The notes beneath the pieces are model-generated. The model searched no databases and was not told where the DNA came from. It saw nothing but the letters and a program-made list of their open reading frames with translations. Of a DNA stretch of 64,000 nt, positions 6,022-52,390 are shown piece after piece (within the stretch, counting starts at the first letter, position 1; each line of letters starts with the position of its first letter). Source of the stretch: a virus; the IMG/VR virus record IMGVR_UViG_3300032323_000670, positions 51,977 through 115,976 of that record; one strand, 5' to 3'. Both the position numbers and the translations under genes were made by a program.

Positions 6022-6022
6022 A

Positions 6023-9679: not shown

Positions 9680-10225
9680 TTAAAATTCTCTTAGTAATGT
9701 ATACGTAAATGTCTTTTTACCAGATGCTTTACAAGCTGCAATCAATGTACCATATTGCTTAGGATCATTAAGTACTTGACATCCTGCTGACCACTTATCT
9801 ATAATACTAGAGATAGCTGATGGGTTAGCGCGGTGTATGTTAATACCAAATAGACCGGTATCCTCTTTACCTTGCTCTTCAGCAGTATCATCTTTGTCAC
9901 CATCACGGTATACAGTTACAGGTTTACGTTGTACTAATGCTTCATACTTACCTTGGTGTAATCCTAATTGGTAAGCATCTACGTATTGTCCTGGCTTTAA
10001 TACTGCTGTACCTTTTGGGTTCAGTAAGTTCTTCAACCAGTGTGTACCTGGGTTAGTTGTACCAGAAAATATCTGTTGCATTGGACCATTGATCAAGTAG
10101 ATATGATCATCAAACTTGTTCTTCTCATTAGCTTTAGACCTGATACCTACAACATGTAGGGTTGGCCATTGATAACCGAATCTAGCAAATTCTGCTTCTA
10201 GTTCTGTGTAAGAATACTTTTTCAT
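9680..10225 (-). CDS. Putative endolysin with L,D-transpeptidase (YkuD)-like catalytic motif
   Basis: GINIHRA...WSAGCQV (H-x14-S-x-G-C); next to holin-like genes. Confidence 0.7.
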   Translation of the reverse strand: MKKYSYTELEAEFARFGYQWPTLHVVGIRSKANEKNKFDDHIYLINGPMQQIFSGTTNPGTHWLKNLLNPKGTAVLKPGQYVDAYQLGLHQGKYEALVQRKPVTVYRDGDKDDTAEEQGKEDTGLFGINIHRANPSAISSIIDKWSAGCQVLNDPKQYGTLIAACKASGKKTFTYTLLREF

Positions 10226-13200
10226 TATTTAATAGTTTGTATAGTTTCCATGTTTTTCAATCTCTGAATAGGATCCACCTGTGTACCAGTAAGACCAAAG
10301 AAGCTCTTAAGAAAATAGTTTGCTAGCTTAAGTCCGCCTTCATCTTGCCAAGCATATGGTCCAACAGACTTATCATAATAAGCACCTTCATCACCTGTCA
10401 CTAACATCCAAGCTCCATTAATTATCTTAACATAGTTAGTAATAGTATTACCAAATGCTATAGAGTCCATATTTAAAATGTTCTTGTAGTCATCTAAACC
10501 GTACCCTGGCCAAGGAATGAATGCTGTGTTCTCATTCAGTGTTGCTTTAGTTAAGAAGAGTAAGTGATTAGACATATAACCTGATAAGTTAAACTCTGTT
10601 CCTTGCTCTCTTGTCCAAGGTAATGGTAAGAATCCAGACTTAGCTTTTAGTTTTTTGAAACGGTCTTCATCATCCTCATCATAATTAAACAAAAGTTTGA
10701 TTAGTACACCCGCCATGATTGATACTACAAGCTCAGTTAGCATCTTCTTCATAGCTACTTTTTCATGCGGCAACATGAATTTAAAATCTCTACCTAATGT
10801 TTTGATACCTCTTACAAGATATGCTATAGATGCTGTGTAATAACCCAGTTGCATTTGATTTGCTCCAACATCCCATCTAGCTTCAGGTTCTAAGAAGTTA
10901 CCTCTGTATCCCCATCTGTTTATAAACATACCCACAAAGAAGCGCTTAAGGAAAGACATTGTACGGAATACAAGATATCTATCTCCCATACTTCTATCAT
11001 ATGATGCATATGCTCCATTCAACCTTCGGTTGGTAGACTGAATCTTTTTGCGCATCATTTTGTACTTCTTACCACCTACACCCCATTCAGGATCAATACC
11101 CTCTTTAAGTTGTATCTGACCATCTTTAACTTCCCAAGCTTCTATATAAGGAATAGTTTTAGTAACTCCGTTTATAGTTTGCTCTACAGTTTGATGGTGC
11201 ATCATACCTCCAAATAAACCTAGAGTAGCATTCATCTGTGTCCACTCTCTGGTATTAGTTAACCAGCTCCTGGACATGAAGTCTTTTGCAAATGTTCTAG
11301 ATATACCTTCAGTCATCTTACCTTTTCTACTATCTAACATCTTCTGGTCAGGATCAAACAGTTCATACATCTGAACGTTTAATGACTTAGGACCAAACTT
11401 ATATATCTGAAAGCTTACTTCAGCTGCAGTAATATTACCAAACAAAGTTCCTTTAGCTAAGCTAGTAGGTGTAATTGCGTCACCTCCTGCAGATTCAATC
11501 ATTGCCTGATACCTAGCACCAAAGGAGTTCTTAAGTGCAGAGTGTATATCTAATGCAAAGAAAGACATAGAGGATAATCCAAGAAGCTTATTAGTAATCT
11601 TGTTTAGTCCAACCATATCAACAGTTGCACCAGCTTGAGTCTTACCTTCAAACTCTCTTTCTATAAGTGAATTAATAACTTGAGCCCTTACTGAGTCACC
11701 CTTTTCAGTAGAAAAGCGCATAACACCTTTATTTAGAAAGTCTGACTTACTTGCTTTCTTCATGTTTCTGATAGCACCCTTCTTACCATTTACTACCTGT
11801 TGTAATGATCTTACTTCAGGACTAATCTCAATAAGTTTCTTTTGTCTTTCCGCACTCTGCATATAACGCATCATACCTTGGAGAACGTCTTCAGATGCTT
11901 CCTCTGGTGTGAAATCATACTTACCTGTAATAGGAATATCAGCCGTCTCATTATCAAATAAGTCTAGATTAACAAGTGCTACATCAGCCTGTGGAGGATA
12001 ACCATCTTCCAAGTCATCTTTTGCTCTACTGAATGTTGCTTTAATATTACTTGCCCAAGATGATAGCTTAGTTCTAGCATCTCCATTTAACATAGTCTCA
12101 CTAAACTCTTTACGGTATCTAGGTATGTATACACCTAGTTTAGCATTTGCGTTAAGACCTTCTTGGTTCTCTAAGTGATAATACAAAAGTTTATTAATCA
12201 GGTTAAACTGATTTAAGTTACGTGATTTAATGTTATAGTACTCTTCATTGCGGTACTTACCATTAGCTTTCGGTAACCATTTACCATTATGATCCACAGT
12301 AGCAAGTGAAAGATCTCCCTTATCAAGGGCTTCCTTCATTGTAACTTTTTTAGTCTTGTAGATTTCTTTAACGTCTCTCTTAAAGTAGTTAATGTTTGGT
12401 ACTACACCCCGTAGAGTTTCTGTTACCTTACCTGTTTCATCTAAGATATCTGTGTTCTCAAGATAGCTAGGATCATAGGGTACAGTAATACTCCATGCGG
12501 CAGTTCTTTTATATCTTCTTACTTGTTTACCATTAGGCATGTAGTACTCTTGTAAAACATGGTTAGCTAAGAACCAAGCTTTGAACTTAGAGCTCTGCTC
12601 CATCATCATATCAGCTATCTCAGGTTCAAGTAAACTATCTACAGTATTTACATCAAACTCACTTATGTTAAGAAGCTCTTTAAGTTTCTTAAGATCAATA
12701 GAATCTTTAGGATCTTCACCAGCTTTAAGAAACTCGTTTACTCTATCTACATAGTGTGTGGTAGCTCTCTTACTAGAAAGTTCTCCTAGTTGTTTTCTTA
12801 TATCTCTAAGCTCATCAATCTCACCGTCAGTAAGACCTAAGTTGTTTCTTCTATCTTGTATCTCATGATAAGCTTTCGCTCTTGCTGTATCCTCAAGAGG
12901 ATTTACTTTACTATAACCTAATTGGAATAGTCCAAGTTCTTCATCAAATCTATCTAGGAATTCTTGATCAGATCTACTTATACCTTGTAAAGTAGTTAAG
13001 TCATCCTTGATTAATTCATACTCAGCTTCTAACTCTTGAATTTTCTTAAGCTTTGCAGGAGTCATTATACTAGCATCAGGTTGACCGTTATCATCACGGA
13101 ATCCACCCAGCTGTTTGTATAACTCATCAAGTACTTCAATAGATCTTATATCAGCCTGCTTATCTTTTGGTAGCTGACTGAGTATTTCTTTCATCCTGTC

Positions 13201-15774
13201 AACAAGCGTTCTGCGCTTTTCATAGTAGGATGGTTTGATCTTTACTACAGTATTTCTATTAATCCAGTCTTGACGCAATCTTCTAAATTCAGTATCACCA
13301 TACTTTACAGCGGGGTTAGTATCTAAGATATACTGCTCATATGATTTGAGCGCACCTTGAAACATACCCTCTCTTTCATTCCACTGGTAATACTTATTAG
13401 TGACTTGTCTATGCTCAAGTAATCTCTGGGCAATGGCAAGGTCTTCTCCTTGTTTCATACTACCGTCAGGATTAGTAAGAGCATATAGTTCTTGGTATTC
13501 TCTCCAATAGATATTAAGTTCTGATAGGTAGTCAGGGTCATTTCTCTCATCTGGACTATTAAGAGAAGCGTTATGGTTAGTAATCTTTTGAAGTATTAAC
13601 CAACGTTTATTATAAGCCTTTTTACCAATATCATCTTTTAGTAAGACCTCATCTTTCTCATACACCTCATCAGAGAAATCTCTATAGAATTCTCTCATCA
13701 TCATCTCTCTTTCTATGTACAGTTTATCCAGCTCATCGCTGTTTCCTGTCTCCATTTGTTTAAGTTGAGCTTGTTTGATTTGTTCATTCTTTCTATCAAG
13801 CTCAATCTCATATCCTTTAACGTGGTGAATAAACGCACGTCTATCACGTTCTTCAAACTTACCCTCTTGAGTTCTTATACCCTGCTTGTCTATATAGCCA
13901 ACTAAAGCCATAAGACCTTTTACATCATTAGGATTATACCCAACTGCATCAGTAAGTTTTTTAATTTCTTGAACCTGCAGGTTGTATTTCTTCTGTACAG
14001 CATTCATTACATCAATGACATTGTCACTAATATAAGAAGCAAGACCAAACACAACAGGATCTTGTATATTCATATAAGCTTCTAACCAAGCACCAATAGC
14101 TCCGGTATCTCCCATCTCACCACCTAACCACTTCTTAAGAGTATCCTTGTTTACTTTAGCACCTTCATATTCTCTAAGGTAACGGTCAACAAGATCTTGT
14201 GGTGCGCCTTTCTTTTTAAGCTCACTTATAATTTCATTATAGTGTCTATCTACCTCAAGGGATAGGGGTTCTAATACATTAGCAAGTAACTCAGATGAAC
14301 CTTCAAGATTCATATTTTCTACAAGAGAGTCAGCAGTAGATAACTTAGCTTCTATACCACCAATAAGGTCAAGGATAGGACCAAGGACTTCTCCAGCTTC
14401 AGCAAATGCTTCACGAGATTCATCAAGGGTCTTCTTCCACTCATTGATTACTTGCTGGTAATAATAAAACTTTTTAACCTTAGTGGGGTCATTCTTACGC
14501 TTAGATAGCTCCTGCATGTGAAGAACCATCTTTTCACTCATAGCTTTAATACTAAACATAGTATTTACATAAGCCCGGGCTCTAGCATCAGTATACTCAA
14601 GTAACTCTTCTGTACCTGTAAATCTATCATTAAGTTCTTTCTGAAATCCTTTAAGATTATTCATGATAACTTCAAAGTCAGAACCAGAGAATTGAGACTC
14701 TAATATAAGAGCCATCTCATCTAGATTTTGGTTATCTTGAATACGTTTGATCTGAGTGCGTGCAGTACGGTAAATGTTATTGATACTCTCAGTAATAGCT
14801 ATAGCACCTTCATCAGTCTTAGACTTAACAAGAACATCATCAATGTATAGATTCTGGTCTTTAATGAAAGCAACAAAGTCAGCTTGATTCACAGAGTCTA
14901 TCTTAAATTCTACAGCTGCCTCAGTGAATATCTTAGACAGGTCGTCCAAGGTGGTGTACTCAGAGAGTTCAGAGATATTGATCTTCTTATCCCCAGAGCT
15001 CTTACGTATGAACTGACGTAGATTGTACAGCATTTCTTTCAACCATTCAAGGAAGCCTTTAGATAAAGGTTTACCATCACGCTTAGCCATAGCGGATTTG
15101 GTGAGGGATTTTACTATCACTTCTTCCTTAAAGTAATCTGACTCAGGGTCTAGTCTCCCAAACCCCTCGGTAACCATATCAATCATCTGCATACCTTCCT
15201 CTGTCTTAGATAACTGTTCATACAGTTTACTAAACAATGCTGGGTTCTCTACAGCAATAGCTCTTACAAACGGGTGAGCAAACTCATGGAAAGCTGTCTC
15301 CATGTTTAATTTATCCTTGATAAAGTATACTTGACCTCCTACAAAGAATCCAGCCTCTCCGCTATATGGGGTACCCGATGCTTTTAATATCTCTAGAGCT
15401 TCTTCCTCATTGATCATATTATATGCTATCCCGAGTCTTTGTGAGAAGCTACCTATAATAGCATCTAGTACAGCGTTACCTGAACTAGAGCTTATATCCA
15501 TAGGACTTATGTTAATTGGATTAAAGATTGTATTAAAGATGGGTATTCTGGCAGCTAACTCTTTTAAGTTATCCATTTCTGTTTTACCAAAAGCATCTGG
15601 ATTCTCTACGTCAGACTCCTCAGTATATTCTCCGCGGGCCATAAGCTTTTCTATAACATCTTCTACATTACGGACTTCTCCATTGTTTTCCAAGAAGTCT
15701 TTATAGGCTTGATACTCACCTACTGCAGATACTAAGTCATTCCAATTTTTTCCTGCGGGACAGCTATTTATCAT
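10225..15774 (-). CDS. Giant virion/ejection protein (1849 aa) with N-terminal zincin domain
   Basis: HEFAH at 15274-15288 with downstream EE; mostly helical; hydrophobic segment near the C-terminus; coupled to the RNAP gene. Confidence 0.8.
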   Translation of the reverse strand: MINSCPAGKNWNDLVSAVGEYQAYKDFLENNGEVRNVEDVIEKLMARGEYTEESDVENPDAFGKTEMDNLKELAARIPIFNTIFNPINISPMDISSSSGNAVLDAIIGSFSQRLGIAYNMINEEEALEILKASGTPYSGEAGFFVGGQVYFIKDKLNMETAFHEFAHPFVRAIAVENPALFSKLYEQLSKTEEGMQMIDMVTEGFGRLDPESDYFKEEVIVKSLTKSAMAKRDGKPLSKGFLEWLKEMLYNLRQFIRKSSGDKKINISELSEYTTLDDLSKIFTEAAVEFKIDSVNQADFVAFIKDQNLYIDDVLVKSKTDEGAIAITESINNIYRTARTQIKRIQDNQNLDEMALILESQFSGSDFEVIMNNLKGFQKELNDRFTGTEELLEYTDARARAYVNTMFSIKAMSEKMVLHMQELSKRKNDPTKVKKFYYYQQVINEWKKTLDESREAFAEAGEVLGPILDLIGGIEAKLSTADSLVENMNLEGSSELLANVLEPLSLEVDRHYNEIISELKKKGAPQDLVDRYLREYEGAKVNKDTLKKWLGGEMGDTGAIGAWLEAYMNIQDPVVFGLASYISDNVIDVMNAVQKKYNLQVQEIKKLTDAVGYNPNDVKGLMALVGYIDKQGIRTQEGKFEERDRRAFIHHVKGYEIELDRKNEQIKQAQLKQMETGNSDELDKLYIEREMMMREFYRDFSDEVYEKDEVLLKDDIGKKAYNKRWLILQKITNHNASLNSPDERNDPDYLSELNIYWREYQELYALTNPDGSMKQGEDLAIAQRLLEHRQVTNKYYQWNEREGMFQGALKSYEQYILDTNPAVKYGDTEFRRLRQDWINRNTVVKIKPSYYEKRRTLVDRMKEILSQLPKDKQADIRSIEVLDELYKQLGGFRDDNGQPDASIMTPAKLKKIQELEAEYELIKDDLTTLQGISRSDQEFLDRFDEELGLFQLGYSKVNPLEDTARAKAYHEIQDRRNNLGLTDGEIDELRDIRKQLGELSSKRATTHYVDRVNEFLKAGEDPKDSIDLKKLKELLNISEFDVNTVDSLLEPEIADMMMEQSSKFKAWFLANHVLQEYYMPNGKQVRRYKRTAAWSITVPYDPSYLENTDILDETGKVTETLRGVVPNINYFKRDVKEIYKTKKVTMKEALDKGDLSLATVDHNGKWLPKANGKYRNEEYYNIKSRNLNQFNLINKLLYYHLENQEGLNANAKLGVYIPRYRKEFSETMLNGDARTKLSSWASNIKATFSRAKDDLEDGYPPQADVALVNLDLFDNETADIPITGKYDFTPEEASEDVLQGMMRYMQSAERQKKLIEISPEVRSLQQVVNGKKGAIRNMKKASKSDFLNKGVMRFSTEKGDSVRAQVINSLIEREFEGKTQAGATVDMVGLNKITNKLLGLSSMSFFALDIHSALKNSFGARYQAMIESAGGDAITPTSLAKGTLFGNITAAEVSFQIYKFGPKSLNVQMYELFDPDQKMLDSRKGKMTEGISRTFAKDFMSRSWLTNTREWTQMNATLGLFGGMMHHQTVEQTINGVTKTIPYIEAWEVKDGQIQLKEGIDPEWGVGGKKYKMMRKKIQSTNRRLNGAYASYDRSMGDRYLVFRTMSFLKRFFVGMFINRWGYRGNFLEPEARWDVGANQMQLGYYTASIAYLVRGIKTLGRDFKFMLPHEKVAMKKMLTELVVSIMAGVLIKLLFNYDEDDEDRFKKLKAKSGFLPLPWTREQGTEFNLSGYMSNHLLFLTKATLNENTAFIPWPGYGLDDYKNILNMDSIAFGNTITNYVKIINGAWMLVTGDEGAYYDKSVGPYAWQDEGGLKLANYFLKSFFGLTGTQVDPIQRLKNMETIQTIK

Positions 15775-18700
15775 GATAATCCTTTACATTTTTTAAAAAA
15801 CTCTTTTACATCTGTATCTGTAACAGTTTGTGCTCCAATACCTTTATAGTAACCTTGCACAAACTCACTACCTGACTCTGTACCTAGTGTTGTTGTAACA
15901 CCAGGAGTTTGAGAAGTAAGTAAGCTTAACGTAGGATTCTGGTACGCAAAGTCTTGTAACAACCTCTTAGACAAATATACAAATAAACTAGGAGCAGGTC
16001 TATTATTAGTTCTAACATTTTCTGTTGGTTGAATGTCAAATCCTACAAAGGTCTGACCCAAACCTCTAGATGGAAATACTATCTCCATACCCTGTCCCTT
16101 CTTCTCAAGTAATCTATCTAAAGCTTTATCAATTTGAGCTTTAAGCTTATCATAGTTTTGATCTGTCACAGGTATAGCAGTAGATACGGGAGCAGCTAAA
16201 GTTGGTATACCAAGTGATATACCCATAGCTTTACCTGGCATCCAAGCTTGTCTTGTTTGACTCTTGTCAACAGCATCCATTGATACACCAGTCTCAGTCA
16301 AGAAGAAGTCATCAAATACAAATAGTTTACCTGGATTTGCAGCACCTATTTCTTGTACAGCTTTTGTATCAAGAGCGTATGTACCATTAGAGACAAACTT
16401 TAACTCATCATAGATCAGAGCAGGTTTCATAACCTCAGCAGTTTGTGTATTTACAACTGTAGGTACTCCCGGTTGATTCTTTATTAGTCCTGGGAATGGT
16501 CCACCTGTCTCACCAAGACGTTCTGTTTGCACTCTTTCAAATGAAGCAGCTTGTGTAGTGACTGGAGCTATGGTTGGTTGACTAGCTACAAAATTTTTAA
16601 ATCCTTCTAGATCTTGTTTAGTACCTAATATATGTGTCTGATCAGACTTTCTTACAACGTGTGTTGTATTTTCCATATCAGAATAATCCACACCAATTAA
16701 ACCATCATTATATTTATAATAACTTAATAAGTCTCTTGCATCTTGTGTACGACTTGGAGGTACGAAACCTGGTTTTAAACGTCTTCTGTTGAATTTTACA
16801 TTAGATATAACTACTGGATTTTTTACATTAATTATAACTGGAAGAACAATAGGTGATTCTGATGATCTTGTTCCAGCAAATTCTGTTGCATAATTCAGAT
16901 CAGCTAAAAATATAGCACCTGAACCAAAACCTTCTAACGAATCCCGATCATTAAATTTATCAAACTGAGCAGATGTACCATGGTAAACGATATCCTTAAC
17001 CTTACTGTCTGGGAATATACTGTCAATGTATTGAGAGTATTGTTGTGGTGTACCTATAGAAGAAAGTTCAGGATTAGAATCAAATAGTTCTGTCACACCC
17101 TCCTTAACTGGAGTTTGAGCAGTAGGTTGTATTACTTCAAACTCAATAGCAGCAGCACCATCTTTAAATCTATCTATTACACTTACATCATCATCTCTCC
17201 AACCTTCTTTTGTCCAAGTTCCTTTCCAACCTGCAGACCCTTTAGGATGAATAGAAGTTACTCTAGCATAAACAGTTTTAGTAGTACCATCTGCGGACTT
17301 ACCGTAGTGTTTAACAACATCTCCTACTTTGATACCATACTTACCCATTTCACCTTCACTTCTAGTAGTTCTAGTTCTGAACCCTGCTTCTATCATATCA
17401 ATAGAATGAGCGTTAGGACCGAGAGCTTCTATTACTTCAGGGTTAGCCGTTACTGTAGAACCGAATGAGTTTATACCTGATACTTTGTTCTGAGGTATAT
17501 TAGCTACAGCTTGTTGACTTACATCAACTTGAGTAGAAGTTTCAACCGTAGGCTTAGGAGATACTAGCTTATCAAACTTCTCATTAAATATAATGTTAGA
17601 AGGTATAGGTCCTGCAGCATTAAACATATCTGCCATCTCTTTACCACTATAACCATTAAGATTAGTTTCAGAGTAGTCCGATACCAAGAACTCCTTATTA
17701 GAGTTTTGTTTAGCATACTCATACAAACCTTTGATTTCATCTATGATTTCTTCAGGAGTACTAGACTTTTTTACATCATAGAACTTCTTAGTTACAATCG
17801 CATAAGACTGTCCTTGTAACCCTCTACTTTGACCTTGGATAGCTCCAAATCTATCTTTAGCTAGTTTTGCGGAACCTGATCCATGTGTAGGTTTACCTCC
17901 TTTAGAACTTCCTTCATTAGAACCAAATACAAATATCTGATTTGGTTGTAAACTATCTACTTTACCAGAATATGTTTTACGAGCAGCAGAAGCCTGTGCT
18001 GATTGACCAAAGGTCTTTTTGTATACATCTCTGATTGCTTGTTCAGCTTCAGCAGACATACCTCTACTACCAATAGCTGCAAAGTTTCTAGTAAGAGTTG
18101 GTGTTTCAATAGCTACAAACTGAGAACCATCCCATGTATACCATCCTTTTGGTAAATGTGATTGAGCTTTAGCATTAGGATCATTGTATACATAAACCGG
18201 TTTACCTGCTTGTATAGCCATCTCAACTGCATACCCAGTACCACCTTGAACAATTTCAGACTTGATTACTATTCTTTGTTCTTCTTTTTTCTTATTCACA
18301 TCTTCACTCCAAACGTCACCTACTTTACCAATAGGTGCAATAGCAAATACCGCATCAGAATAATACACCTGAGCCCAGTTTCTAATCAGTCTCTCGTCTT
18401 TCATTGTAGCATACGCATATGGTACAATTTTACCAACTTTCATCTTATTACCCCACATTTTATTAGCAGCTTCAGCTACTTTAGATGCTCCGGTAACAGC
18501 AACTTGTAATTCAGTTATGTCAACATTACCCTTAGGAGCATTCTTTTCAGAACGTGTTCCTGTATAGTAATGGTTAAACTTAACAGGTCCAAACTCTTGC
18601 CCTATCTCATCCCACTTAGTATCTGCACCCGCAGCTCCACCAGAATGACCTCTAACATTTGATGGTCTTAGTGCACCTGTCAAACTACCTATAGAAGAAC

Positions 18701-21700
18701 TCCAGTTTACAAAAACGGCACCTGGTGTATATTTACCAGTATCTGGATCAACCGAAGCTTGTTTTTGCTCAAACAACTCTTTATAATTTGCTAGTATAGC
18801 GGTACCTACATTAGAGTTGAGGTCATTAATAAATGTATTCAAAGCAGGCTCAAGCATCTCAGGTAGACCTGTTCTAGTCTGATCAAATATAGATCCCATA
18901 GATATACGGGAGTTTGGATCATTACCTGCTTGCATGAACGCTATAAGAGGTAGTTTAGAGAAGAATGCTGCAATAGCTTCTTTCTCCGCTTCTCTCTCTG
19001 CTATAACTTTTGATGGATCCATAAGATTCATCATCTGACTTGTGTAAGCTGTCAATTTATCAGGGTCCTTTTCTCTAAACTTCTGAGTTAAGAAAGTGTA
19101 ACCTTGTTCTGATTTAGAACGTAATGTCTTTAATACATCATAGTTCTCAGCAAGCGCTTCATTCTGACTTAAGATATAATCAAATCTATCAGCAATTGAG
19201 AATATACCTAACTGTCTATCTGTTTTAAATAAAGCATTTACATTAAATGTATTATCTAATGCTTTGTTTCTTATAAACTCCTCATACAATTGCGGTAAGT
19301 CATAGTTAACTACTTCACCCTCCTTTGCCATTGCAGATAGGTCTGTCATACGTTTTTGTGCAAAGTATCTAAACTCTTGATTCTTCTCAATTGATTTATA
19401 TGGCATACCATCTCTAAGCATCTCACGCTCATAAACAAACTGTCTATATATAGCGCGTGCTTTAGTATCTGGATATCCTGCAAACATATCTATTGGTAAA
19501 TTTGCCACCAATCCTAAACCATAACCTTCTTTAGCAAACGCTTTAGTCTTATAGTCATTATCAATTGCATAGTTATCTACAGCTAGCTTACCTGTTTTTA
19601 TATCATAGAATGCTCCAAATCCTAAGTTTGGTTCTTTTTCAATTGTAACTTCTTTAGAAATATCTGCAGACTTATATGTGGTAGCAGCAGGATCAAAAGT
19701 ATTATGGTAATTATAAAACATGTAAGATGTCAAGTTATTGACAAAGTCAGACTGATATCTTTCTCTTACATCCTTATCCATGAATTGATTACTTAGCACT
19801 CTAGCTAAGTAACTATTAATGTTTCTTACACCTCTTAAAGGAAGTAAAGCAGACACTGCATCCACCATAATATCAGATGCTATGAAGTTGTGAAGGACTG
19901 TCTTATTTAATAAGTTATTAATACTTTCTGTAGAGAATCTATCTGAAAGCTCTCTTAGATTAGCTTCTTTTTGAGTAGCTTCAAATAAAGACTGTTGCTT
20001 GTCTGTATCAAAGTTAAGATTTCTCTTAAGCTCAACATTACCTTTAGCCATGTTCTGAACTTCCAAGAAATGTAAAAACGTTGCTAAAGCATAATCACTA
20101 TCTGTGTTATCAGTCTTAGCTTGCTTCATTAACTCCTCTTGGGTAAAGAAGTAGTTCCCATCATTTAGGAATTCTTGAGCTAGCGATAATACTTCTCCGG
20201 TAGGTTTACTATAAATATTTCCTTTTTTGTCAATAGTAATTGCTAGATCAGGACGATACTTTTCTAATACATCAATCATAGCTTGATACTTAGCAAAATT
20301 TGGATTAGAGATCTCACCTTTTGCAAGTGGGAATACACCATTATACGATTGAACTAACTGTAAGTATTCTCTTACCATTGGTTGAGATGCAAGGGCAACA
20401 GCTGTTTTAATAGGCACCCCTCCCATAACCATGAATTCTACTTCACCTTCAAATTCTTTAACAGCGTTGATGTCAAACACCCAATCTTTTTTAGCTACGT
20501 CTAAGTAACCATTCATGATTTGAGATATTACATCTGCAATGTCATATTCATTATTAGCATCCAGAGTATGACTTAGTGATACAACTTTAGTACCATCATC
20601 TTCTACATAGTAGTTATGATCCATACGTATCACATTTTCTATACTCCAAGAGCTTGTACCTTTGGAGTTATACACAGTAGATACTGGTTGCATTGCTAGA
20701 CCCACACTCTTATATAAAGGAAAGAATGTAGCTCCTGAAGCTAACATACTAATACCTGTCTTACCAGAAGACATAGCAACCGCTTTATCAATATTGTAGC
20801 GGTTCTGCATTATCTTGGTGGGTGAGTTAATTACTTGCTCCTTTCTATTAATAGGACTGAAATCTTTTACAATACCTGTATCATCATCAGTAAAAATGTC
20901 TGTAGAGTTAGGTGTAGTTAAACTAACATAGTTAGCAGGTCTTAATAAAAGATCTGACCAGCTATCAAGTATATCATTTTGATATGCTCTAGGTTTAAAT
21001 GAGTTACTTTCTCTATTGAGTTCACGTAATTTTTTATTTTCTTCTTCAAGTTCAATGTTTCTTCTATCAAGTGTTTCATTCAAGAAGTTTTCTCCAAATG
21101 CTCTCTTTAAGAATTCTCTTTTAACAGTAGCTTCTTCTTCAGTTAATTTGTCTATCTGAGACTGAAAAGAGTCTTCTACATCCTGATAGCTTGCATTTGA
21201 AGCATTTGGATCAGCTATAAACTTATCATAAGCTGCATTTAATTCTTTTCTTAATGTGTTTATAGGTTTTCTATACTTATTTTTTATAGCATTAAACTCC
21301 TCTTCCTGCTCAGGTGTGAAAGGTAACTTTTGTTTTCTCACCTCATCTATATACTCATTATAATCATCATAGATACTAGCAATATAGTCTTTAATCTTTT
21401 TCTTCTCTTCTACTATTTCTTCAAAAGTTTTAGTAGTAGCCTTAGGTCTAGTTAGTTCTATAACACCTTTATTATCACTGATAACAGGTCTGATTACAAT
21501 CAACTTATCAATGTCAAAGTCACCACCTGATTTAGCTACAATCTCTGAAGGTACAATGATTATGTTACCCGCTTCTGCAGGTAAGAACTCAGCAACCTCC
21601 ATTGATTCAATGTAGTTCATACTAGCTGTTGGAATACGAGTACCTCCCATAGTAAGCATCTTGCGATGGTCACCAGTGTTTAACCATTCCTCATCATATT

Positions 21701-24700
21701 TTATTAACTCATTGAGTCTTTCTCTCGTACCTATGACTTTTCCATCAAGATCTTTTAATTTTAGTAACTTAACAAAGTCTCCTTGTAAAGCTACCTTAAC
21801 TTGCATTGATCCAATAGATACAGTTTTTTTAGGGTCATCTGTTACTTTACCTTTCTTATCTAGAGGTCTATAGAATAATAAACCATTTGTACCATACTTT
21901 TCTAGATCTTTTTCAGTTGGTTTAGTAAACTTCTCAAAACCAATACCTGACCCTTGAATGTAAGCTTCACCATAGATCATCTGATCTATAATTCTTTTAT
22001 TTACAAGAGAGTTTACAAGCTTTTCAATTTTTGCTGGATCATTAGCTAGATCTAATGGTAAAAGAATGTTTCCAGTAGAACTAAGCTTTATATAATCTAT
22101 ATCATATAGTGATATGTCTCTCTTAGCTAAGTTAGTTTTAATAAACTCAATGAGCTTTTGCTTATTGATTTTACCATCTGCATAGCCAAGTTCTTTCTTA
22201 AGATCTTCTTTAGCTACATCAATCATCTTAGAAATTGCTCTCTGATAACGTTGCTCTAATGCATATGCTGGTGACTCATTTTCCTTTTCAGTTTCATCAG
22301 TAATTGAATTCCAAAGCTTACGTCTTTTTTCATCACTCATATTAGGTTTGAAATCAACAGGGAATCCTTGCTCTAATACACCAGACGTAATAAGCTTACG
22401 AGCTTGAGTTGGGAACTTCTGTTTGTTATTCCATGTATCATGTGTAGCAAGCTGCTCTTTTAAATACTGTAGGAATATGTCATTTTTAGTAAAGGTGTAA
22501 CCTGGTTTAGTGTATGCAGGCTCAGCACTACCATTACGTTCAGTATAGAAAAGATCTAACTTTCCGTTCTTACCAAGAGATGCTAACTTAGAACCTGAAT
22601 GCATTACAGCATAGGCGATACCTTGAGAAACCATTTTATTATGAAGCTTCTCTAAGTGACTATCTTTAATAACACTAGGTATTAAAGGCATTACTGAATA
22701 CTTGTGGAAAGCATTCACTGGGAAATTACTAGTAGATAGTGCACCACCATACTGCAATTTTTTAACAGGGAAGAATATAGCTAGCCTATCAGCATCTACC
22801 TCAACACCATTAATAATATCTTCATATAGTTTTTGCTTAACTGGTCCCCAGTTACCAAATCTCATCTCTAAAGCACGGTATGCATCAAAGCTAATCCAAG
22901 CTTGAGCATCTGCAGACTTCATGTTTTTATACTCACTATACTTCTTACTATAATACTTTATAGCAGAAGCTTCATCTTGAAATTGTTTTTTGTTAACAGC
23001 TACACCTGCAGCATACTTCACCATTGTATCAAAGTAGATAGAATCTTCAAATGCGTCTTCTAGTACTGCAGTTGATAGAACCTCTCCTTCTAATGCACCT
23101 TTCTCTGGTTCTGGTAAACCCGTATTCTTAAACCAAGCACTAGATGTATATATGCCAGGATTATTAGCAATCACAGATTGTGTTGTGGCACCTGTTACAG
23201 GAATCTTACCTGTTGCAAAGAATGCAGCCACACGTTTCATGTGCTCATCCTTATTATGATTATAAATAGCAGGATCACCATAGACAAGAGTATTCATCTC
23301 CACTCTATGGATAAAGCTAGTGTATACAAAGTTTTCTACTGCAGCAGGGAAAATAGTATCTATCTCAGCATAGACCCTTCTACTTACTTTTTTACCGTTT
23401 TGTAACTCTTCAACATTGTAATCAAATTTCTTTTTTACTTCTGATAGCATTCCTGATCTTTCAGATAAACCATAAGATCTAAGAGTCTCGGTATCTTTAC
23501 TGATCTCGTTGTTAAAATAGTTATTAAGATCTGTCTCTATTCTGAACTTTAAATCAGCATTACTTCTAATAGCACTTCTAAACTCTTCTACAGTATTTAT
23601 ATTACTGTTTATTAATTCATTTTTAACCGCATTACTAAGTATGCCATCAAATACTGTAAACTTAGATCCTGCATCTTCATATGTTACATACTTACCGTCT
23701 TTAAGATAAAGTATGATGTCTGATGCTTTTTCCCCATAGACATTGTTCTTACTAGCCTTTACCTTTTTGATACGCTCAAGTTCTGAACCAACATAATCCA
23801 GTATAATAGCATTAGCTGCATCTCTACCTAGAGAAGCGTTGTTTCCAGATCTAGCTTGAGCAAATAGTTCAGGACGCACATAATAGTTAATACTAGGATC
23901 TCCGATAAGCTTAGCAATATAAGCTGAACTTTTATCAGCATGTTTGTAAGCTTCAGTAGCACCATACATATTTGTAAAGAAGAAATCTCTTAACCATGCT
24001 GTTTGCTTATCAGAATCAGAAGACTTAATGCCTTTTACCATTGATTCTATTTCCGCAGTTAGATTTATTAATTGAGTTCCTTCTAAAGACTTTAAGTCAA
24101 GAGTTGCTCTTACTCCCTTATATCTCATTCTACCTTGAAGATTTGCTCCAAACATTCTCTGGAATATCTGAGATGTTTTTACAGCAGGATTGATGGCAGG
24201 ATTGAAATGAGCTAAGTGAGGTTGAGCTGTAGCACTTTCTAGTGAATCGCTATTATTTAAATCTAATATTACATTACCTGCAGAGCTAGGATTACTTCTT
24301 TCACTTTTTGGTTTCTCCTCAGCTGTCTTAGACATGTAATTAGCATACAGAGGGTTTACTCTTGACTCAATCTCATAAAGCTTTTTAAAATTACCCTCAT
24401 GATTATATACAAGAGAATCTTCTCTCTTTTGCCCGGAATATCTAGTTATATATTCTACATTGCTATTGAAAAGACCTTTTTGCTTATCCTCTAATCTAAA
24501 TTTTAATATTGTATCTACAATACCAGATTCATTAAGATTAGCAATGTTTTCCTCTGTATTAGTTAAGCGTATACCTAGATCCCCAAAGAATTCTATTGGA
24601 TTAATATTTTCTATTGATTTACCAGCATACTTGTTTTTTAAAGCTTTTACACTGATTCTCACATTACCTTGAGCATCATAGCTTTTAAAAGGTGACGGGT

Positions 24701-27700
24701 TATAAGATATAAATTGATTAGCAAAGTCTCTTCCTAAAGCCGCAGGTGCTGAATCAGCAACACCTACAACTACTTCAATACTACTGTCTCTTTTTTTAAC
24801 AAGCATCTTCATGCCCTGTATTCTATCATACCTAACACTATGAAAAAGTAAAACCCATAACGAGTGAGCACCTAGAGATGTATCTGTAGGTTTACCTAGT
24901 TTCCCTAAGAACTGCTGAAGCATTAAAGAGTTAGGATCAAGTTCACCCTTTGTTTTCTTTTCAGAGGCTAGAGAGAGCTTTTCGTACATATCATCTATAG
25001 TATTACTACCCTCAACAGCTGCTGACACAAGATTATATATAACTCTCGGATCAGCTAGTTCTATTCCGCCTATAATATTATACTTGTAACCATCTGGATT
25101 TTCATCAGTTACCTCAACTCTTTTGTGCACAGATCCCATAAGGAATCTCATTTCAGGATTTACCCTTTCATAGTCAGTCTTCTTAGTTCCGTCATTTGAT
25201 TCAAGTTGATTAGTTACAGGATCACCATCTTCTGCATTCTCAGATGTACCTTCAACATATGAAAGCTCCTCATCATTAAGAATAGATTCTGTAGTATCTA
25301 GAAAACCTGTACGCTGATTATAGTAAGCTATTACACCTATTTCTTTGTTGTTATTAAGATTCTCTAAATCTCCAAATTTATCAATAGCATCTTGAATATA
25401 AGAAAGTCTTTTTTCAATAACCTGTTGCTCAACACTACTTGTAACATTATCTAATTGATTAAGGAGCCTATCTCTGTTTGCAACAAAACTATTAAATGCA
25501 TAACGTAAAGCTATCTTCTTTGTCTCTGGATCATAAAGCGTACTAAGAGTATACTTACTACTAGCTTCTCCCGCTAATCCTTCACTTAGCATATCTACAT
25601 AGTCAGATATGTATGAGCCCATTGCTTCTGAAATAGCTAGTGAAGCATCAACATCTATCGTTTTTCTAACTCCCTTTTCATCAATGTTTAATGTTATACC
25701 TGAGTATAATACATCAAACTGAACATTCTCCTGGTTATAGGTTCTATCAACAAAGTCACCAGTATATAATTCATTAAATGCACTATTTAATAGCTCACTT
25801 TCTGTAAGGTGTACAGCTAAAGAGTTATTATCAGCTTTTCCAAATAAAGCTTTGAGTGCTTCCCATAATTTCTTAAAGAAAGATCTGAACTTGCTTGACT
25901 CTGTCTTTTGAGTCTTTGCATATTCACGGAACTCATCTGCTAAGTATTCCTCAGCATAGAGTATATGTTGCATATTACTAAAATCTAAGTCACCGCTGTT
26001 CATAGTTTCCCACTTAGCAGTACCGTGATTATAGTAAGTAATTGTCTTGTTTAGTTTCTTTACCTCATTGTACAATACCTCTCTTTCCTCATTAGTCATA
26101 AACAACTGAGTGAAAGCATGCCATGCTTCATGGTAAAGATCAGTGCTATCAGAGCCTTTGAAAAGAGTTATACCACTCTTTGTAAACTGAGCTTTGATTT
26201 TAGGATTAGTATTAGCATACTTAAACAATACTTGGTAGGGTACAACCTCAGACAGCTTCTTTGTTACTTGCTTTCCCTTACTGTCTCTAAAAGTAATTTC
26301 AGTAGTGTTATACCACTTGTCACCATCTTCAACTTGTTTAGCTGTAGCTTTAACGCTATCATCTCGCATACTGTAAAGTTTGCTAGGATCAATTCTAGCT
26401 TTGGTGGCTTCAATAGCAGCTTTACGAGCATCTTCTGAGAAGGTCATTCCCAAATTAGATAACTTTGGTTTAGACATCTCCTCAATTTCTTCATTAGAGG
26501 TTTCTTCAACCTCTTCTGATTCAGGTGTAATTTTAGACAGAGTCTCAATATTAGCATCATACTTAATGTATCCATTAAGCATCATAACATCTCCATTCTC
26601 ATCTACTTCAGCTTTGATATATGCATTATTAACAAGCCATTCTTTATATGGAATCGGATTGCTTACATATTCAAATTTACCATTACCTAATGGTGTAAGG
26701 CTGAACATGTCTATAGTTCTATTAGGAATTATATAAGACGGTTCATTATATGAAAACTGATTTTTAAATGTCTCAGTTTTACCATCTTCATTTGTTGCAG
26801 TTACGTTTCTGGTAAGAAAGTTTATAATCTTACTTTTTACATCAGGGTCTTTAGGATTTAAAGTTTCACCTTCTAGGTAAATTTGACCTGTTGTAGTATT
26901 AATTGATATACCACCGTCAGCTCCAAGAATAGTAAAATCTCTAATAGCAACATACTTTTGTTGAGCTGAAAGAGGTTGACCATCTGCACCAATGACATCT
27001 CCTGTAAGTAGATCAGCAACTGTATTTGCCATTTCAGGTGTATAGGCAGCCATTGCCAGCCTAACAGCAGTGCCATCAGAAAGTCTTATTAGTTTGGTAT
27101 CCTTCTTACCTACACGACTTATCTCTATTGAGTAGTTAGTTTTTAAATTACTTAATAGCGTTACTGCATCAGAATTATAATTAATGGTACCTTCACTATA
27201 TCCTGTTATATTTAATGGTAGTATCTCTCCTGGATTCTTATCCAAGTACTCCTTCATATTAGTTATGGCATCATAGGCCATTGAGTACTCATTAATAACC
27301 TTTTGTTTAGTTAGACTACTGTCTTTTTTAAGACGGTCTGCAATTGTTTGAACTGAAATACCTAACTGCTCTTCAAGATTATACTCACGGATACCATTCT
27401 CATTAACTTTAAATGAAGGAACGGTTCTTATAGGAAAGTATATAAGCTTTCCATTTTCTTTAGTAGTAACGTTGTAACCGTTATCAAAATAAACATACTC
27501 ACCATTTTTATTAGTAACTACAGCATGAAACTGTTGAGAAGTAATATCCTCTATGTTTTTAACAGACTGCATGTCAGGATAAAGCTGGTCAATAGAAATA
27601 CCACCTTTAACAAGTGATAAACGTACACCGCCTGGGACTCCTTGAAATGAAACTGTCCCCTCATTACTTCTACCAGTTAAGGTCATGATTTTACCTAGCT

Positions 27701-28262
27701 TTTTAATAAAGCCGTAATACCATTCTCTACCTGGTTTACTTTCATTACCTGTAGTACTTAAAGGATTGTATGGTAAGTCAGCACTTACTTTTTTATTAAT
27801 TACTATGACAGGTAACGGACTAGGGTTTGGTTTAGGTTGTAGTCTTTCTCCCTCATCAACACTATTGATTTGTCCAGCTAAATCTTTAGCGCCTTTAGAT
27901 CCTGATTGCTCAGCTATAAAGTTAGCTACATCCTGTAAAGAATTATTGAACCGGTCTAAAAGATTATCTACAGCAGCAACGTCATAACCCTTACCTTTAA
28001 GAGCAACCTTAACATCAGGGAATGACATCATAGTCATCTGTAAAGCGGATGGTACTTGACGAGCAAAGGTGATAGCTTGCTGCGGATCACCTGTCTTCTT
28101 TTCAATTAAGTCATGGATATACTTTACAAACTTTTCTGTATTAAAAGTTTTAATCTTATCATCATTAGCTCTTTCAGTTACAATCTTAGCTACAATAAGA
28201 TTTAAGTTATCAATGTCCTTGGACTCAAGTGTCCATGTACCGTCTGCTATGTTACAAATCAT
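15771..28262 (-). CDS. Virion-packaged crAss-type DNA-dependent RNA polymerase polyprotein (4163 aa)
   Basis: Catalytic GGDFDIDK (DFDID at 21507-21521) preceded by RIPT and IIVPSEIVAKSG; zincin HEAWH at 26118-26132; C-terminal accessory domains. Confidence 0.88.
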   Translation of the reverse strand: MICNIADGTWTLESKDIDNLNLIVAKIVTERANDDKIKTFNTEKFVKYIHDLIEKKTGDPQQAITFARQVPSALQMTMMSFPDVKVALKGKGYDVAAVDNLLDRFNNSLQDVANFIAEQSGSKGAKDLAGQINSVDEGERLQPKPNPSPLPVIVINKKVSADLPYNPLSTTGNESKPGREWYYGFIKKLGKIMTLTGRSNEGTVSFQGVPGGVRLSLVKGGISIDQLYPDMQSVKNIEDITSQQFHAVVTNKNGEYVYFDNGYNVTTKENGKLIYFPIRTVPSFKVNENGIREYNLEEQLGISVQTIADRLKKDSSLTKQKVINEYSMAYDAITNMKEYLDKNPGEILPLNITGYSEGTINYNSDAVTLLSNLKTNYSIEISRVGKKDTKLIRLSDGTAVRLAMAAYTPEMANTVADLLTGDVIGADGQPLSAQQKYVAIRDFTILGADGGISINTTTGQIYLEGETLNPKDPDVKSKIINFLTRNVTATNEDGKTETFKNQFSYNEPSYIIPNRTIDMFSLTPLGNGKFEYVSNPIPYKEWLVNNAYIKAEVDENGDVMMLNGYIKYDANIETLSKITPESEEVEETSNEEIEEMSKPKLSNLGMTFSEDARKAAIEATKARIDPSKLYSMRDDSVKATAKQVEDGDKWYNTTEITFRDSKGKQVTKKLSEVVPYQVLFKYANTNPKIKAQFTKSGITLFKGSDSTDLYHEAWHAFTQLFMTNEEREVLYNEVKKLNKTITYYNHGTAKWETMNSGDLDFSNMQHILYAEEYLADEFREYAKTQKTESSKFRSFFKKLWEALKALFGKADNNSLAVHLTESELLNSAFNELYTGDFVDRTYNQENVQFDVLYSGITLNIDEKGVRKTIDVDASLAISEAMGSYISDYVDMLSEGLAGEASSKYTLSTLYDPETKKIALRYAFNSFVANRDRLLNQLDNVTSSVEQQVIEKRLSYIQDAIDKFGDLENLNNNKEIGVIAYYNQRTGFLDTTESILNDEELSYVEGTSENAEDGDPVTNQLESNDGTKKTDYERVNPEMRFLMGSVHKRVEVTDENPDGYKYNIIGGIELADPRVIYNLVSAAVEGSNTIDDMYEKLSLASEKKTKGELDPNSLMLQQFLGKLGKPTDTSLGAHSLWVLLFHSVRYDRIQGMKMLVKKRDSSIEVVVGVADSAPAALGRDFANQFISYNPSPFKSYDAQGNVRISVKALKNKYAGKSIENINPIEFFGDLGIRLTNTEENIANLNESGIVDTILKFRLEDKQKGLFNSNVEYITRYSGQKREDSLVYNHEGNFKKLYEIESRVNPLYANYMSKTAEEKPKSERSNPSSAGNVILDLNNSDSLESATAQPHLAHFNPAINPAVKTSQIFQRMFGANLQGRMRYKGVRATLDLKSLEGTQLINLTAEIESMVKGIKSSDSDKQTAWLRDFFFTNMYGATEAYKHADKSSAYIAKLIGDPSINYYVRPELFAQARSGNNASLGRDAANAIILDYVGSELERIKKVKASKNNVYGEKASDIILYLKDGKYVTYEDAGSKFTVFDGILSNAVKNELINSNINTVEEFRSAIRSNADLKFRIETDLNNYFNNEISKDTETLRSYGLSERSGMLSEVKKKFDYNVEELQNGKKVSRRVYAEIDTIFPAAVENFVYTSFIHRVEMNTLVYGDPAIYNHNKDEHMKRVAAFFATGKIPVTGATTQSVIANNPGIYTSSAWFKNTGLPEPEKGALEGEVLSTAVLEDAFEDSIYFDTMVKYAAGVAVNKKQFQDEASAIKYYSKKYSEYKNMKSADAQAWISFDAYRALEMRFGNWGPVKQKLYEDIINGVEVDADRLAIFFPVKKLQYGGALSTSNFPVNAFHKYSVMPLIPSVIKDSHLEKLHNKMVSQGIAYAVMHSGSKLASLGKNGKLDLFYTERNGSAEPAYTKPGYTFTKNDIFLQYLKEQLATHDTWNNKQKFPTQARKLITSGVLEQGFPVDFKPNMSDEKRRKLWNSITDETEKENESPAYALEQRYQRAISKMIDVAKEDLKKELGYADGKINKQKLIEFIKTNLAKRDISLYDIDYIKLSSTGNILLPLDLANDPAKIEKLVNSLVNKRIIDQMIYGEAYIQGSGIGFEKFTKPTEKDLEKYGTNGLLFYRPLDKKGKVTDDPKKTVSIGSMQVKVALQGDFVKLLKLKDLDGKVIGTRERLNELIKYDEEWLNTGDHRKMLTMGGTRIPTASMNYIESMEVAEFLPAEAGNIIIVPSEIVAKSGGDFDIDKLIVIRPVISDNKGVIELTRPKATTKTFEEIVEEKKKIKDYIASIYDDYNEYIDEVRKQKLPFTPEQEEEFNAIKNKYRKPINTLRKELNAAYDKFIADPNASNASYQDVEDSFQSQIDKLTEEEATVKREFLKRAFGENFLNETLDRRNIELEEENKKLRELNRESNSFKPRAYQNDILDSWSDLLLRPANYVSLTTPNSTDIFTDDDTGIVKDFSPINRKEQVINSPTKIMQNRYNIDKAVAMSSGKTGISMLASGATFFPLYKSVGLAMQPVSTVYNSKGTSSWSIENVIRMDHNYYVEDDGTKVVSLSHTLDANNEYDIADVISQIMNGYLDVAKKDWVFDINAVKEFEGEVEFMVMGGVPIKTAVALASQPMVREYLQLVQSYNGVFPLAKGEISNPNFAKYQAMIDVLEKYRPDLAITIDKKGNIYSKPTGEVLSLAQEFLNDGNYFFTQEELMKQAKTDNTDSDYALATFLHFLEVQNMAKGNVELKRNLNFDTDKQQSLFEATQKEANLRELSDRFSTESINNLLNKTVLHNFIASDIMVDAVSALLPLRGVRNINSYLARVLSNQFMDKDVRERYQSDFVNNLTSYMFYNYHNTFDPAATTYKSADISKEVTIEKEPNLGFGAFYDIKTGKLAVDNYAIDNDYKTKAFAKEGYGLGLVANLPIDMFAGYPDTKARAIYRQFVYEREMLRDGMPYKSIEKNQEFRYFAQKRMTDLSAMAKEGEVVNYDLPQLYEEFIRNKALDNTFNVNALFKTDRQLGIFSIADRFDYILSQNEALAENYDVLKTLRSKSEQGYTFLTQKFREKDPDKLTAYTSQMMNLMDPSKVIAEREAEKEAIAAFFSKLPLIAFMQAGNDPNSRISMGSIFDQTRTGLPEMLEPALNTFINDLNSNVGTAILANYKELFEQKQASVDPDTGKYTPGAVFVNWSSSIGSLTGALRPSNVRGHSGGAAGADTKWDEIGQEFGPVKFNHYYTGTRSEKNAPKGNVDITELQVAVTGASKVAEAANKMWGNKMKVGKIVPYAYATMKDERLIRNWAQVYYSDAVFAIAPIGKVGDVWSEDVNKKKEEQRIVIKSEIVQGGTGYAVEMAIQAGKPVYVYNDPNAKAQSHLPKGWYTWDGSQFVAIETPTLTRNFAAIGSRGMSAEAEQAIRDVYKKTFGQSAQASAARKTYSGKVDSLQPNQIFVFGSNEGSSKGGKPTHGSGSAKLAKDRFGAIQGQSRGLQGQSYAIVTKKFYDVKKSSTPEEIIDEIKGLYEYAKQNSNKEFLVSDYSETNLNGYSGKEMADMFNAAGPIPSNIIFNEKFDKLVSPKPTVETSTQVDVSQQAVANIPQNKVSGINSFGSTVTANPEVIEALGPNAHSIDMIEAGFRTRTTRSEGEMGKYGIKVGDVVKHYGKSADGTTKTVYARVTSIHPKGSAGWKGTWTKEGWRDDDVSVIDRFKDGAAAIEFEVIQPTAQTPVKEGVTELFDSNPELSSIGTPQQYSQYIDSIFPDSKVKDIVYHGTSAQFDKFNDRDSLEGFGSGAIFLADLNYATEFAGTRSSESPIVLPVIINVKNPVVISNVKFNRRRLKPGFVPPSRTQDARDLLSYYKYNDGLIGVDYSDMENTTHVVRKSDQTHILGTKQDLEGFKNFVASQPTIAPVTTQAASFERVQTERLGETGGPFPGLIKNQPGVPTVVNTQTAEVMKPALIYDELKFVSNGTYALDTKAVQEIGAANPGKLFVFDDFFLTETGVSMDAVDKSQTRQAWMPGKAMGISLGIPTLAAPVSTAIPVTDQNYDKLKAQIDKALDRLLEKKGQGMEIVFPSRGLGQTFVGFDIQPTENVRTNNRPAPSLFVYLSKRLLQDFAYQNPTLSLLTSQTPGVTTTLGTESGSEFVQGYYKGIGAQTVTDTDVKEFFKKCKGLS

Positions 28263-51802: not shown

Positions 51803-52390
51803 TTAATTAAAATCAAACTCATTATATGTTTTCATTGCATCTACTGCAAATTTTATTCTAGCATCTCTTGTTTTTACCATCTGTTGTATCAAAGCAGAAA
51901 CCTTTTCATTTCTATTAAGCTCCATATACATCTTCCAGTTTTCCACATAGTACTTAGAAACAGTTCTTTTAAACTTTCTAGCAGGTTTGAATCCCCACAT
52001 AGCACTATCCTTAAACTTATACTTGGAATTGTAGTTAGTATAAACTATTTTACCAAGAGCTCCATCTGTTTCCCAATTCTTATGAGAAACCTTAACACCG
52101 TATAATCTTGACTTATGATAATCTATATTATCCTTAGGTTTTGATTTACATGTTGCTACAAACATATATCCCAAGCTCTCGGGTAGTTCTACACCTTCCC
52201 TATTTTCCATAACATACTGAGCTATAAGTTCATTAAACTCTTTTATAATAGCTCTTGTTTCACTTATACCTAGTGCCGTTGCACCGGGTACCTTTTTGCA
52301 CAGGGCTTTGTAAAAACTAACACTGTCTGCTTGCTTTGCTTCAACTCTATATCTGGGTTGATTTAAGTCTGGTTTTCTAAAAGTTTCCAT
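51803..52390 (-). CDS. IHF/HU-like DNA-binding protein (crAss-type)
   Basis: Helix followed by GVELPESLGYMFV and WGFKPARKFKR; conserved position in the tail block. Confidence 0.6.
   Translation of the reverse strand: METFRKPDLNQPRYRVEAKQADSVSFYKALCKKVPGATALGISETRAIIKEFNELIAQYVMENREGVELPESLGYMFVATCKSKPKDNIDYHKSRLYGVKVSHKNWETDGALGKIVYTNYNSKYKFKDSAMWGFKPARKFKRTVSKYYVENWKMYMELNRNEKVSALIQQMVKTRDARIKFAVDAMKTYNEFDFN

Follow-up and report, generated by a model that had tools for sequence, protein, structure and literature searches.

N4-type virion RNA polymerases have been described as polyvalent proteins, variously fused to a zincin-like peptidase, an ADP-ribosyltransferase (ART), lysozyme or PBECR (Iyer, Burroughs, Anand, de Souza, Aravind 2017, PMC5512222). 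For polymerases of the crAss type, gp66 of Cellulophaga phage phi14:2 and its neighbours are carried in the virion, enter the cell and carry out early transcription (bioRxiv 10.1101/2020.03.07.982082); in crAss001, the homologues are capsid cargo (PMC10172136). For viral SLOG-Macro-NADAR sets, a role in processing immune signals or toxins derived from ADP-ribose, early in infection, has been proposed (Iyer, Burroughs, Anantharaman, Aravind 2022, PMC9503650). Here, we analyse a stretch of 64,000 nucleotides (the window) from an uncultured phage (IMG/VR record IMGVR_UViG_3300032323_000670, positions 51,977 to 115,976), in which one giant gene encodes a virion-type RNA polymerase with add-on domains. 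We read its product as a polyvalent protein, in which a crAss-type polymerase carries a delivered, exchangeable kit of ADP-ribose and nucleotide enzymes, and give this reading a probability of roughly 60%. The delivery-vehicle idea has already been published for N4-type virion polymerases (PMC5512222) and is extended by the case described here, the additions being a constant DUF7831 domain that defines the slot, a nucleotide-level breakpoint in a linker, and fold support for the A1S_2505 family as a macro domain. Among crAss-type polymerases, our literature search found no description of such an enzyme cassette, the crAss-like polymerase proteins being described as ‘large, multidomain proteins’ only (Yutin 2021).

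As in the N4-type polyvalent proteins, a single giant polypeptide joins an early-transcription polymerase to unrelated enzyme domains, among them ART-PolyVal; the gene lies among late and virion genes, an HExxH motif is found in the chain, and domain content varies among relatives. In contrast to them, the carrier is a two-barrel crAss-type polymerase unrelated to the T7-like N4 enzyme, and the modules occupy a defined slot before a conserved DUF7831 domain. The text of PMC5512222 contains no passage on SLOG, YpsA, ASCH or macro domains and does not mention crAss-like phages. With phi14:2 gp66 (PDB 6VR4) and crAss001 gp47, gp49 and gp50, the locus shares a homologous core and a block of three giant genes beside structural genes. 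Presence in the virion was shown for those proteins. With 2180 amino acids (aa), gp66 has roughly half the length of the protein studied here, and by tblastn it lacks the third to fifth of the domains listed below. As in the viral SLOG-Macro-NADAR sets, a SLOG domain stands beside a macro fold, and NADAR appears in the same slot of relatives, but there the domains are typically stand-alone proteins (PMC9503650), whereas here they are fused inside a polymerase.

A polymerase with an insertion slot before its end domain

The carrier gene and its catalytic motif are located as follows:

15771..28262, minus strand: giant-protein gene (virion-type RNA polymerase plus add-on domains), an uninterrupted open reading frame (ORF) of 4163 aa
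21507..21521, minus strand: DFDID catalytic motif of a two-barrel RNA polymerase, residues 2248-2252

By sequence, the 4163-aa protein is assigned to the crAss-type, phi14:2 gp66-like two-barrel (DFDID) RNA polymerases. The core matches phi14:2 g066, the ‘catalytic RNA polymerase subunit’, in tblastn (E 9e-17) together with about 15 crAss-like ‘cr’ phages, and a phmmer search finds the crystal structure of gp66, 6VR4 (E 7.2e-17). The polymerase body ends near residue 3200. The last ~960 residues form five separate domains connected by short linkers rich in T, Q and P. We modelled them with AlphaFold in two pieces, model A (modules 1 to 3) and model B (modules 4 and 5), with the predicted local distance difference test (pLDDT) as the measure of confidence:

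18009..18653, minus strand: module 1, SLOG-superfamily Rossmann-like domain, residues 3204-3418
17979..18008, minus strand: linker 1, residues 3419-3428; pLDDT below 50 at model A 222-225
17562..17978, minus strand: module 2, A1S_2505-family domain of predicted macro fold, residues 3429-3567
17505..17561, minus strand: linker 2, residues 3568-3586; pLDDT below 50 at model A 370-388
17127..17504, minus strand: module 3, small ASCH (PUA-like) domain, residues 3587-3712, with the conserved motif AGFRTRTTR
17109..17126, minus strand: linker 3 (within ..QPTAQTP..), a recombination breakpoint, residues 3713-3718
16563..17108, minus strand: module 4, predicted ADP-ribosyltransferase of the ART-PolyVal (H-Y-D) type, residues 3719-3900
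16500..16562, minus strand: linker 4, residues 3901-3921; pLDDT below 50 at model B 183-198
15780..16499, minus strand: module 5, conserved C-terminal region including DUF7831 (Pfam stretch 16050-16337), residues 3922-4161

The modular layout emerged from both searches and models. When the C-terminal 963 residues served as a single query in library searches, 4214 of 1.8 billion representative proteins matched at E<=1e-3, each over the range of a single module, and the matched ranges fell into five discrete blocks (4-222, 222-378, 379-517, 518-700 and 701-963), each of which is also seen alone, in other orders and inside other giant proteins. Model A (mean pLDDT 84.5) shows three compact domains with disorder exactly at the linkers that the first-pass annotation had quoted, including a low-pLDDT stretch at positions 514-517; model B (mean pLDDT 67.9) is poor for module 4 and fair for module 5. 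The five domains that this annotation had read from the sequence were thus recovered with borders agreeing within about 20 nucleotides (nt), all four of its linkers are found in the translation and coincide with low-pLDDT stretches, and its identification of the carrier as an RNA polymerase agrees with the DFDID motif and the g066 and 6VR4 matches. Across 266 related proteins (P0001-P0266), the tripeptides QPT, TQP, QPS and QAP are enriched ~20-fold within 25 residues of a module border, in the window at linkers 3 (17109-17126) and 4 (16500-16562). The T-Q-P linker motif may provide a flexible joint of a standard kind or mark a protease site. A search for direct DNA repeats between the linkers of the gene, as possible microhomology for recombination, found none that was convincing, and the likeness lies at the peptide level.

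A word-indexed search with the core returned about 120 giant relatives, 2419-4722 aa long, whose precomputed Pfam content differs; 115 of them carry a DFDxD motif. By module profiles, module 5 is present in 103 of the 120 and sits at the extreme C-terminus in 101, and modules 1, 2, 3 and 4 are found in only 19, 10, 14 and 15, respectively. The gap between the end of the core and module 5, measured in 100 relatives, is shorter than 60 aa in 41, 60-300 aa in 21, 300-700 aa in 22 and at least 700 aa in 16. The slot between core and DUF7831 therefore holds from 0 to 1273 aa: in 41 of the 100 relatives module 5 directly follows the polymerase body, and here about 720 residues with four modules (1 to 4) are accommodated. 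Since module 5 is nearly constant at the C-terminus and the distance to the core varies, DUF7831 is the constant end domain of this polymerase clade, and modules 1 to 4 are an insert in a hot spot before the end. A conserved core with a variable train, as had been predicted, was indeed found across relatives. The idea of five swappable modules had to be given up for four modules plus a constant end: the train is variable in modules 1 to 4, but module 5 is fixed, so there is no free C-terminal tail.

The slot of other relatives contains different enzymes, for example an AlkB-like 2-oxoglutarate (2OG) oxygenase plus NADAR in P0026, an AlkB-like oxygenase plus ART in P0013, a superfamily 1 (SF1) helicase in P0036 and an AAA_33/zeta-type kinase in P0110. 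Grouping what the slots contain into families de novo collapsed to one component, the proteins being multidomain, and was not used. A second insertion site lies in the N-terminal third near the HExxH motif, with module 1 at residues 667-843 of P0036 and 874-1069 of P0037, module 3 at 714-840 of P0029 and module 2 at 564-682 of P0057. Moreover, in P0013 (residues 4073-4491) a module 2-type domain interrupts the conserved C-terminal region after DUF7831 and ahead of the final ~50 residues, so that this region tolerates insertions too.

Recent exchange at the linkers can be seen between close relatives. P0002 is ~100% identical in both flanks of the slot and across modules 1 and 2; its module 3 is only 13-50% identical, with the drop just after linker 2, its ART is a distant homologue, and about 520 extra residues lie in the slot. 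A Pfam scan of these ~520 extra residues of P0002 and P0004 returned nothing. P0003 lacks module 2, which is missing exactly between linkers, from linker 1 onwards. Furthermore, a metagenome scan for related DNA yielded contigs L003 and L004, of which L003 is 94% identical at the DNA level from window position 17129 down to 9774, covering module 4, module 5 and the whole next gene, and is unrelated upstream of 17129, with the break in the QPTAQ linker after module 3. In P0093, the core is 32% identical, yet module 3 is 84% identical. Whole modules are gained, lost and replaced by recombination at the linkers, even where the flanks are ~100% identical. In place of ASCH, L003 (Ga0181352_1001576, positions 1-495) carries 165 residues that contain GFHGG...LMLFFTD; they have no Pfam match and may be an undescribed module.

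The individual modules

The labels proposed for the domains from the sequence (SLOG, A1S_2505/macro, ASCH and ART) hold for four of the five, the fifth being DUF7831. Sequence and profile searches of the PDB with the whole train and with modules 1, 2 and 5 gave nothing meaningful, so the fold labels rest on the predicted structures.

Module 1 had been called SLOG/YspA-like, in agreement with its best fold match, 3imk of the cpYpsA type (Z 11.3, root-mean-square deviation (rmsd) 3.3, 139 of 158 aa aligned), with its similarity to phrog_768 (DprA-like, E 2e-6) and with two glycine-rich loops, SGGAAGAD and QGGTGY, of which SGGA.G.D and GGTGYA are nearly invariant in the family. The nearest Atlas clusters with a Pfam family are all SLOG (DprA, LDcluster4, YAcAr, cpYpsA, YpsA), and no Pfam match of the module itself was found at E<=1.

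Module 2, described earlier as A1S_2505-type and probably macro-like, matches NCBIfam NF049995 (A1S_2505_Nterm) over residues 3443-3563 (E 9e-26, 90.3 bits against a cutoff of 45, full profile 1-109) and phrog_2072 (E 2e-27). Its model (pLDDT ~90 in model A) is closest to TARG1 (2l8r, Z 11.4; 4j5q, Z 11.0, rmsd 3.0, 130 aa), followed by DarG (Z 10.2-10.3), Poa1p (Z 9.9) and then viral and bacterial macro domains; 108 chains reach at least Z 8, and among the matches listed nearly all are macro domains or designs on a macro-fold scaffold (hydrolases). TARG1, DarG and Poa1p, the best structural matches (Z 9.9-11.4), align over 125-134 residues, but they show no detectable sequence similarity to module 2, whose family has its own signature, FVFGSN...HGxGxA. 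The model thus predicts that the widespread phage A1S_2505 family is a macro domain, a fold-level assignment with firm fold support. At the sequence level, the family shares a Thr-Lys pair (T3491-K3492 here), which resembles the ITKK segment that holds Lys84 of TARG1.

The ASCH label of module 3 agrees with fold matches to PH0355 (2z0t, Z 8.8, 94 of 109 aa, 22% identity) and YqfB (9kyf, Z 8.4, 97 of 102 aa, 21% identity), the identity to these two proteins lying at 21-25%, and with further ASCH matches (3iuw, 5guq, 1t62, 3s9x). The site of YqfB is a Lys-Thr-Glu triad with an Arg oxyanion hole; in a by-eye alignment with it (PMC6972931), G-F-R-T-R-T-T-R (residues 3627-3634) appears to keep the Thr and Arg positions, with Arg where YqfB has Lys21. 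ASCH proteins deacetylate N4-acetylcytidine (ac4C) in nucleosides and tRNA (PMC6972931; bioRxiv 10.64898/2026.02.27.708502). ASCH has no established role with NAD or ADP-ribose.

The ART-like character ascribed to module 4 rests mainly on Pfam, given the low confidence of its model. PF18760 (ART-PolyVal) matches residues 3758-3830 with E 1e-7 and 33.0 bits against a cutoff of 31.2 when the 963-aa piece is scanned, and with 25.2 bits for the full-length protein of 4163 aa, covering only profile positions 8-67 of 140. Fold matches are nearly all ARTs, namely PARP4 (Foldseek probability 0.93), tankyrases, PARP14, exotoxin A, ParT and RES, and are weak (top Z 5.3, with VIA exotoxin A) because the model is poor. 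In the family alignment, H3761 and D3853 are conserved, and the strand-2 aromatic residue is F3785 here and Tyr in many relatives; these three candidate site residues fit the H-Y-D pattern of the family (PMC5512222). In a few homologues of module 4 (P0092, P0161, P0216 and P0093), Arg replaces the His of strand 1 (..YRGS..).

Module 5 contains a strongly conserved helix, FVYLSKRL..F.YQNP, and matches Pfam PF25176 (DUF7831) over residues 3976-4071 (E 3e-7, 30.6 bits against 27, C-terminal piece). The nearest Atlas clusters are stand-alone viral DUF7831 clusters. It had been taken for a diverged relative of module 2, which is plausible, as hhalign aligns the two collinearly over 131 columns with the main motifs paired, but is not established (hhalign probability 37%, weak macro-fold matches at Z 3.3-4.0). 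The DUF7831 end domain is possibly a degenerate macro-like domain.

Genome setting and probable delivery

The window is part of a single 115,976-bp contig with a G+C content of ~36%. Two further giant genes and a putative peptidase motif accompany the features listed above:

28259-36070, same strand as the polymerase gene: neighbouring giant ORF of 2603 aa (ORF list)
10225-15774, same strand as the polymerase gene: neighbouring giant ORF of 1849 aa (ORF list)
26118..26132, minus strand: HEAWH, zincin-like HExxH motif in the N-terminal region, residues 711-715

The 4163-aa gene overlaps each giant neighbour by 4 nt (15771-15774 and 28259-28262), suggesting translational coupling of the three giant genes, and this block shares its strand with the genes of the major head protein and of further virion proteins. 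Neither neighbouring giant protein (2603 and 1849 aa) matches a Pfam family at E<=0.01. An HExxH motif occurs in the first 1200 residues of 113 of the 120 relatives, and the HEAWH-bearing region here matches crassvirus ‘RNA-polymerase subunit’ proteins (E 1e-5 to 1e-7); a Pfam scan of the 4163-aa protein found no peptidase family. A search of the 116-kb genome with the module 4 profile revealed no second ART.

In searches against GenBank phages, megablast of the region gave no match, nor did tblastn of modules 3 and 4 together or of module 5; at such similarity, modules 3 to 5 are therefore known only from metagenomes. The core used as a query against viral contigs found no relative. The virion RNA polymerase of Klebsiella phage Pylas (NC_049444.1), an N4-like member of Schitoviridae, contains a SLOG domain similar to module 1 at ~residues 987-1167 (37% identity, E 2e-26, locus 6001-6540), which places the same add-on on an unrelated polymerase scaffold and indicates convergence. 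A cultured crassvirus, Kolpuevirus ‘frurule’ of Bacteroides cellulosilyticus, has a module 2-like (A1S_2505-like) domain near residues 1900-2030 of a polymerase-block protein, a 2385-aa ‘putative RNA polymerase’, and together these two cases mark the theme as convergent and widespread.

Since the gp66 and crAss001 homologues are virion cargo, the modules are probably delivered into the host at time zero together with the polymerase. The opposite, that the modules are removed before or during packaging and have a late role in the producer cell, or serve as mass in folding or packing, is in our view unlikely. The recurrent T-Q-P-type linker motif could be a protease site, the chain contains a zincin-like HExxH motif, and DdrB of phage P1 is processed before packaging (PMC5512222), all of which would suit removal; the N4 virion RNA polymerase, however, enters the particle without processing (PMC5512222), the modules have conserved parts of the protein on either side, so that excision would detach the conserved end domain too, and rapid module exchange with conserved enzyme-like motifs argues for selected activities.

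Proposed function and its alternatives

As a delivered kit, the modules would enter the host with the polymerase and be present before any phage gene is expressed. They could remain attached to it or be set free at the linkers, possibly through the zincin-like HEAWH module. By family, they suggest chemistry on ADP-ribose and nucleotides, as proposed for viral SLOG-Macro-NADAR sets (PMC9503650) and for ARTs on N4-type virion polymerases (PMC5512222), and their substrates would be marks and signals derived from nucleotides. The macro domain might remove or bind ADP-ribose, for example from DarT-type DNA ADP-ribosylation, the SLOG domain may bind or cleave NAD-derived signals, and the ASCH domain could act on a modified nucleoside or RNA. 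The ART domain would modify a host protein, as T4 Alt does. In this proposal, as with Alt, an ART delivered with the DNA would act on host proteins at time zero, and Alt is the model invoked for polyvalent ARTs; Alt differs, however, in being an R-S-E type enzyme and a separate head protein, whereas module 4 is a predicted H-Y-D enzyme, in which Phe stands in for the Tyr, and forms part of a polymerase chain. By analogy with these systems, we infer a counter-defence role of the modules.

Several points weigh against this proposal. Packaging is argued from relatives that are distant (the identity to gp66 is 23%), and the modules are absent from gp66 itself. The macro label of module 2 is fold-level only, as its sequence profiles matched no solved macro domain in the PDB. 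Module 3 seems, in a by-eye alignment, to have Arg at the position of the catalytic Lys21 of YqfB (PMC6972931). The model of module 4 has low confidence (pLDDT 43-73), and Phe replaces the Tyr that is usual in strand 2. A chain that combines a writer (the ART) with an eraser (the macro domain) has no obvious single purpose. Finally, the slot fillers of relatives (AlkB, helicase, kinase) fit nucleic-acid repair equally.

The likeliest of the alternatives is a template- and transcript-care kit acting in cis, which we consider possible, if rather improbable. The exchange slot, a dedicated one evolved in this clade, would present erasers (DarG/TARG1-like macro, NADAR, AlkB and ASCH) tethered to the first enzyme to meet the incoming genome. 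They would clean the template DNA and the early RNAs of host-inflicted or spontaneous lesions where transcription takes place and before phage genes are expressed, rather than act as free effectors on host targets, and the T-Q-P linkers would be standard joints or would be cut for a timed release. In relatives, most of the enzymes that occupy the slot erase marks or repair damage (AlkB-like oxygenase, NADAR, SF1 helicase), and the modules are held inside the chain ahead of the conserved end domain instead of forming a detachable tail. The closest folds to module 2 are TARG1 and DarG, which remove ADP-ribose from DNA, and ASCH proteins remove the acetyl group of ac4C (PMC6972931; bioRxiv 10.64898/2026.02.27.708502). 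An ART, however, is a writer and not an eraser. Moreover, the same modules also exist as free-standing phage genes and in giant proteins other than polymerases, so that tethering is not required for their function.

Very unlikely is a write/erase switch, silent in the producer and on after ejection, by which the ART and macro domains would regulate the polymerase or its partner giants: gp66 is packaged self-inhibited with its mode of activation unknown (bioRxiv 10.1101/2020.03.07.982082), and the chain holds a writer and a candidate eraser, but 41 of 100 relatives have no insert, and module 4 occurs in only 15 of 120 and module 2 in 10 of 120, making a core regulatory role improbable.

The delivered, exchangeable enzyme kit that we favour would bear on a group of phages that are among the most abundant viruses known and whose first minutes in the host are largely unexplained. 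The slot-and-linker layout explains how cargo gets exchanged, and DUF7831 can now be placed in context, as a domain conserved at the end of a clade of polymerases. If the proposal is true, the packaged polymerase cargo would amount to a set of candidate activities in counter-defence and repair, each in a small, separately folding domain fit for cloning and assay.

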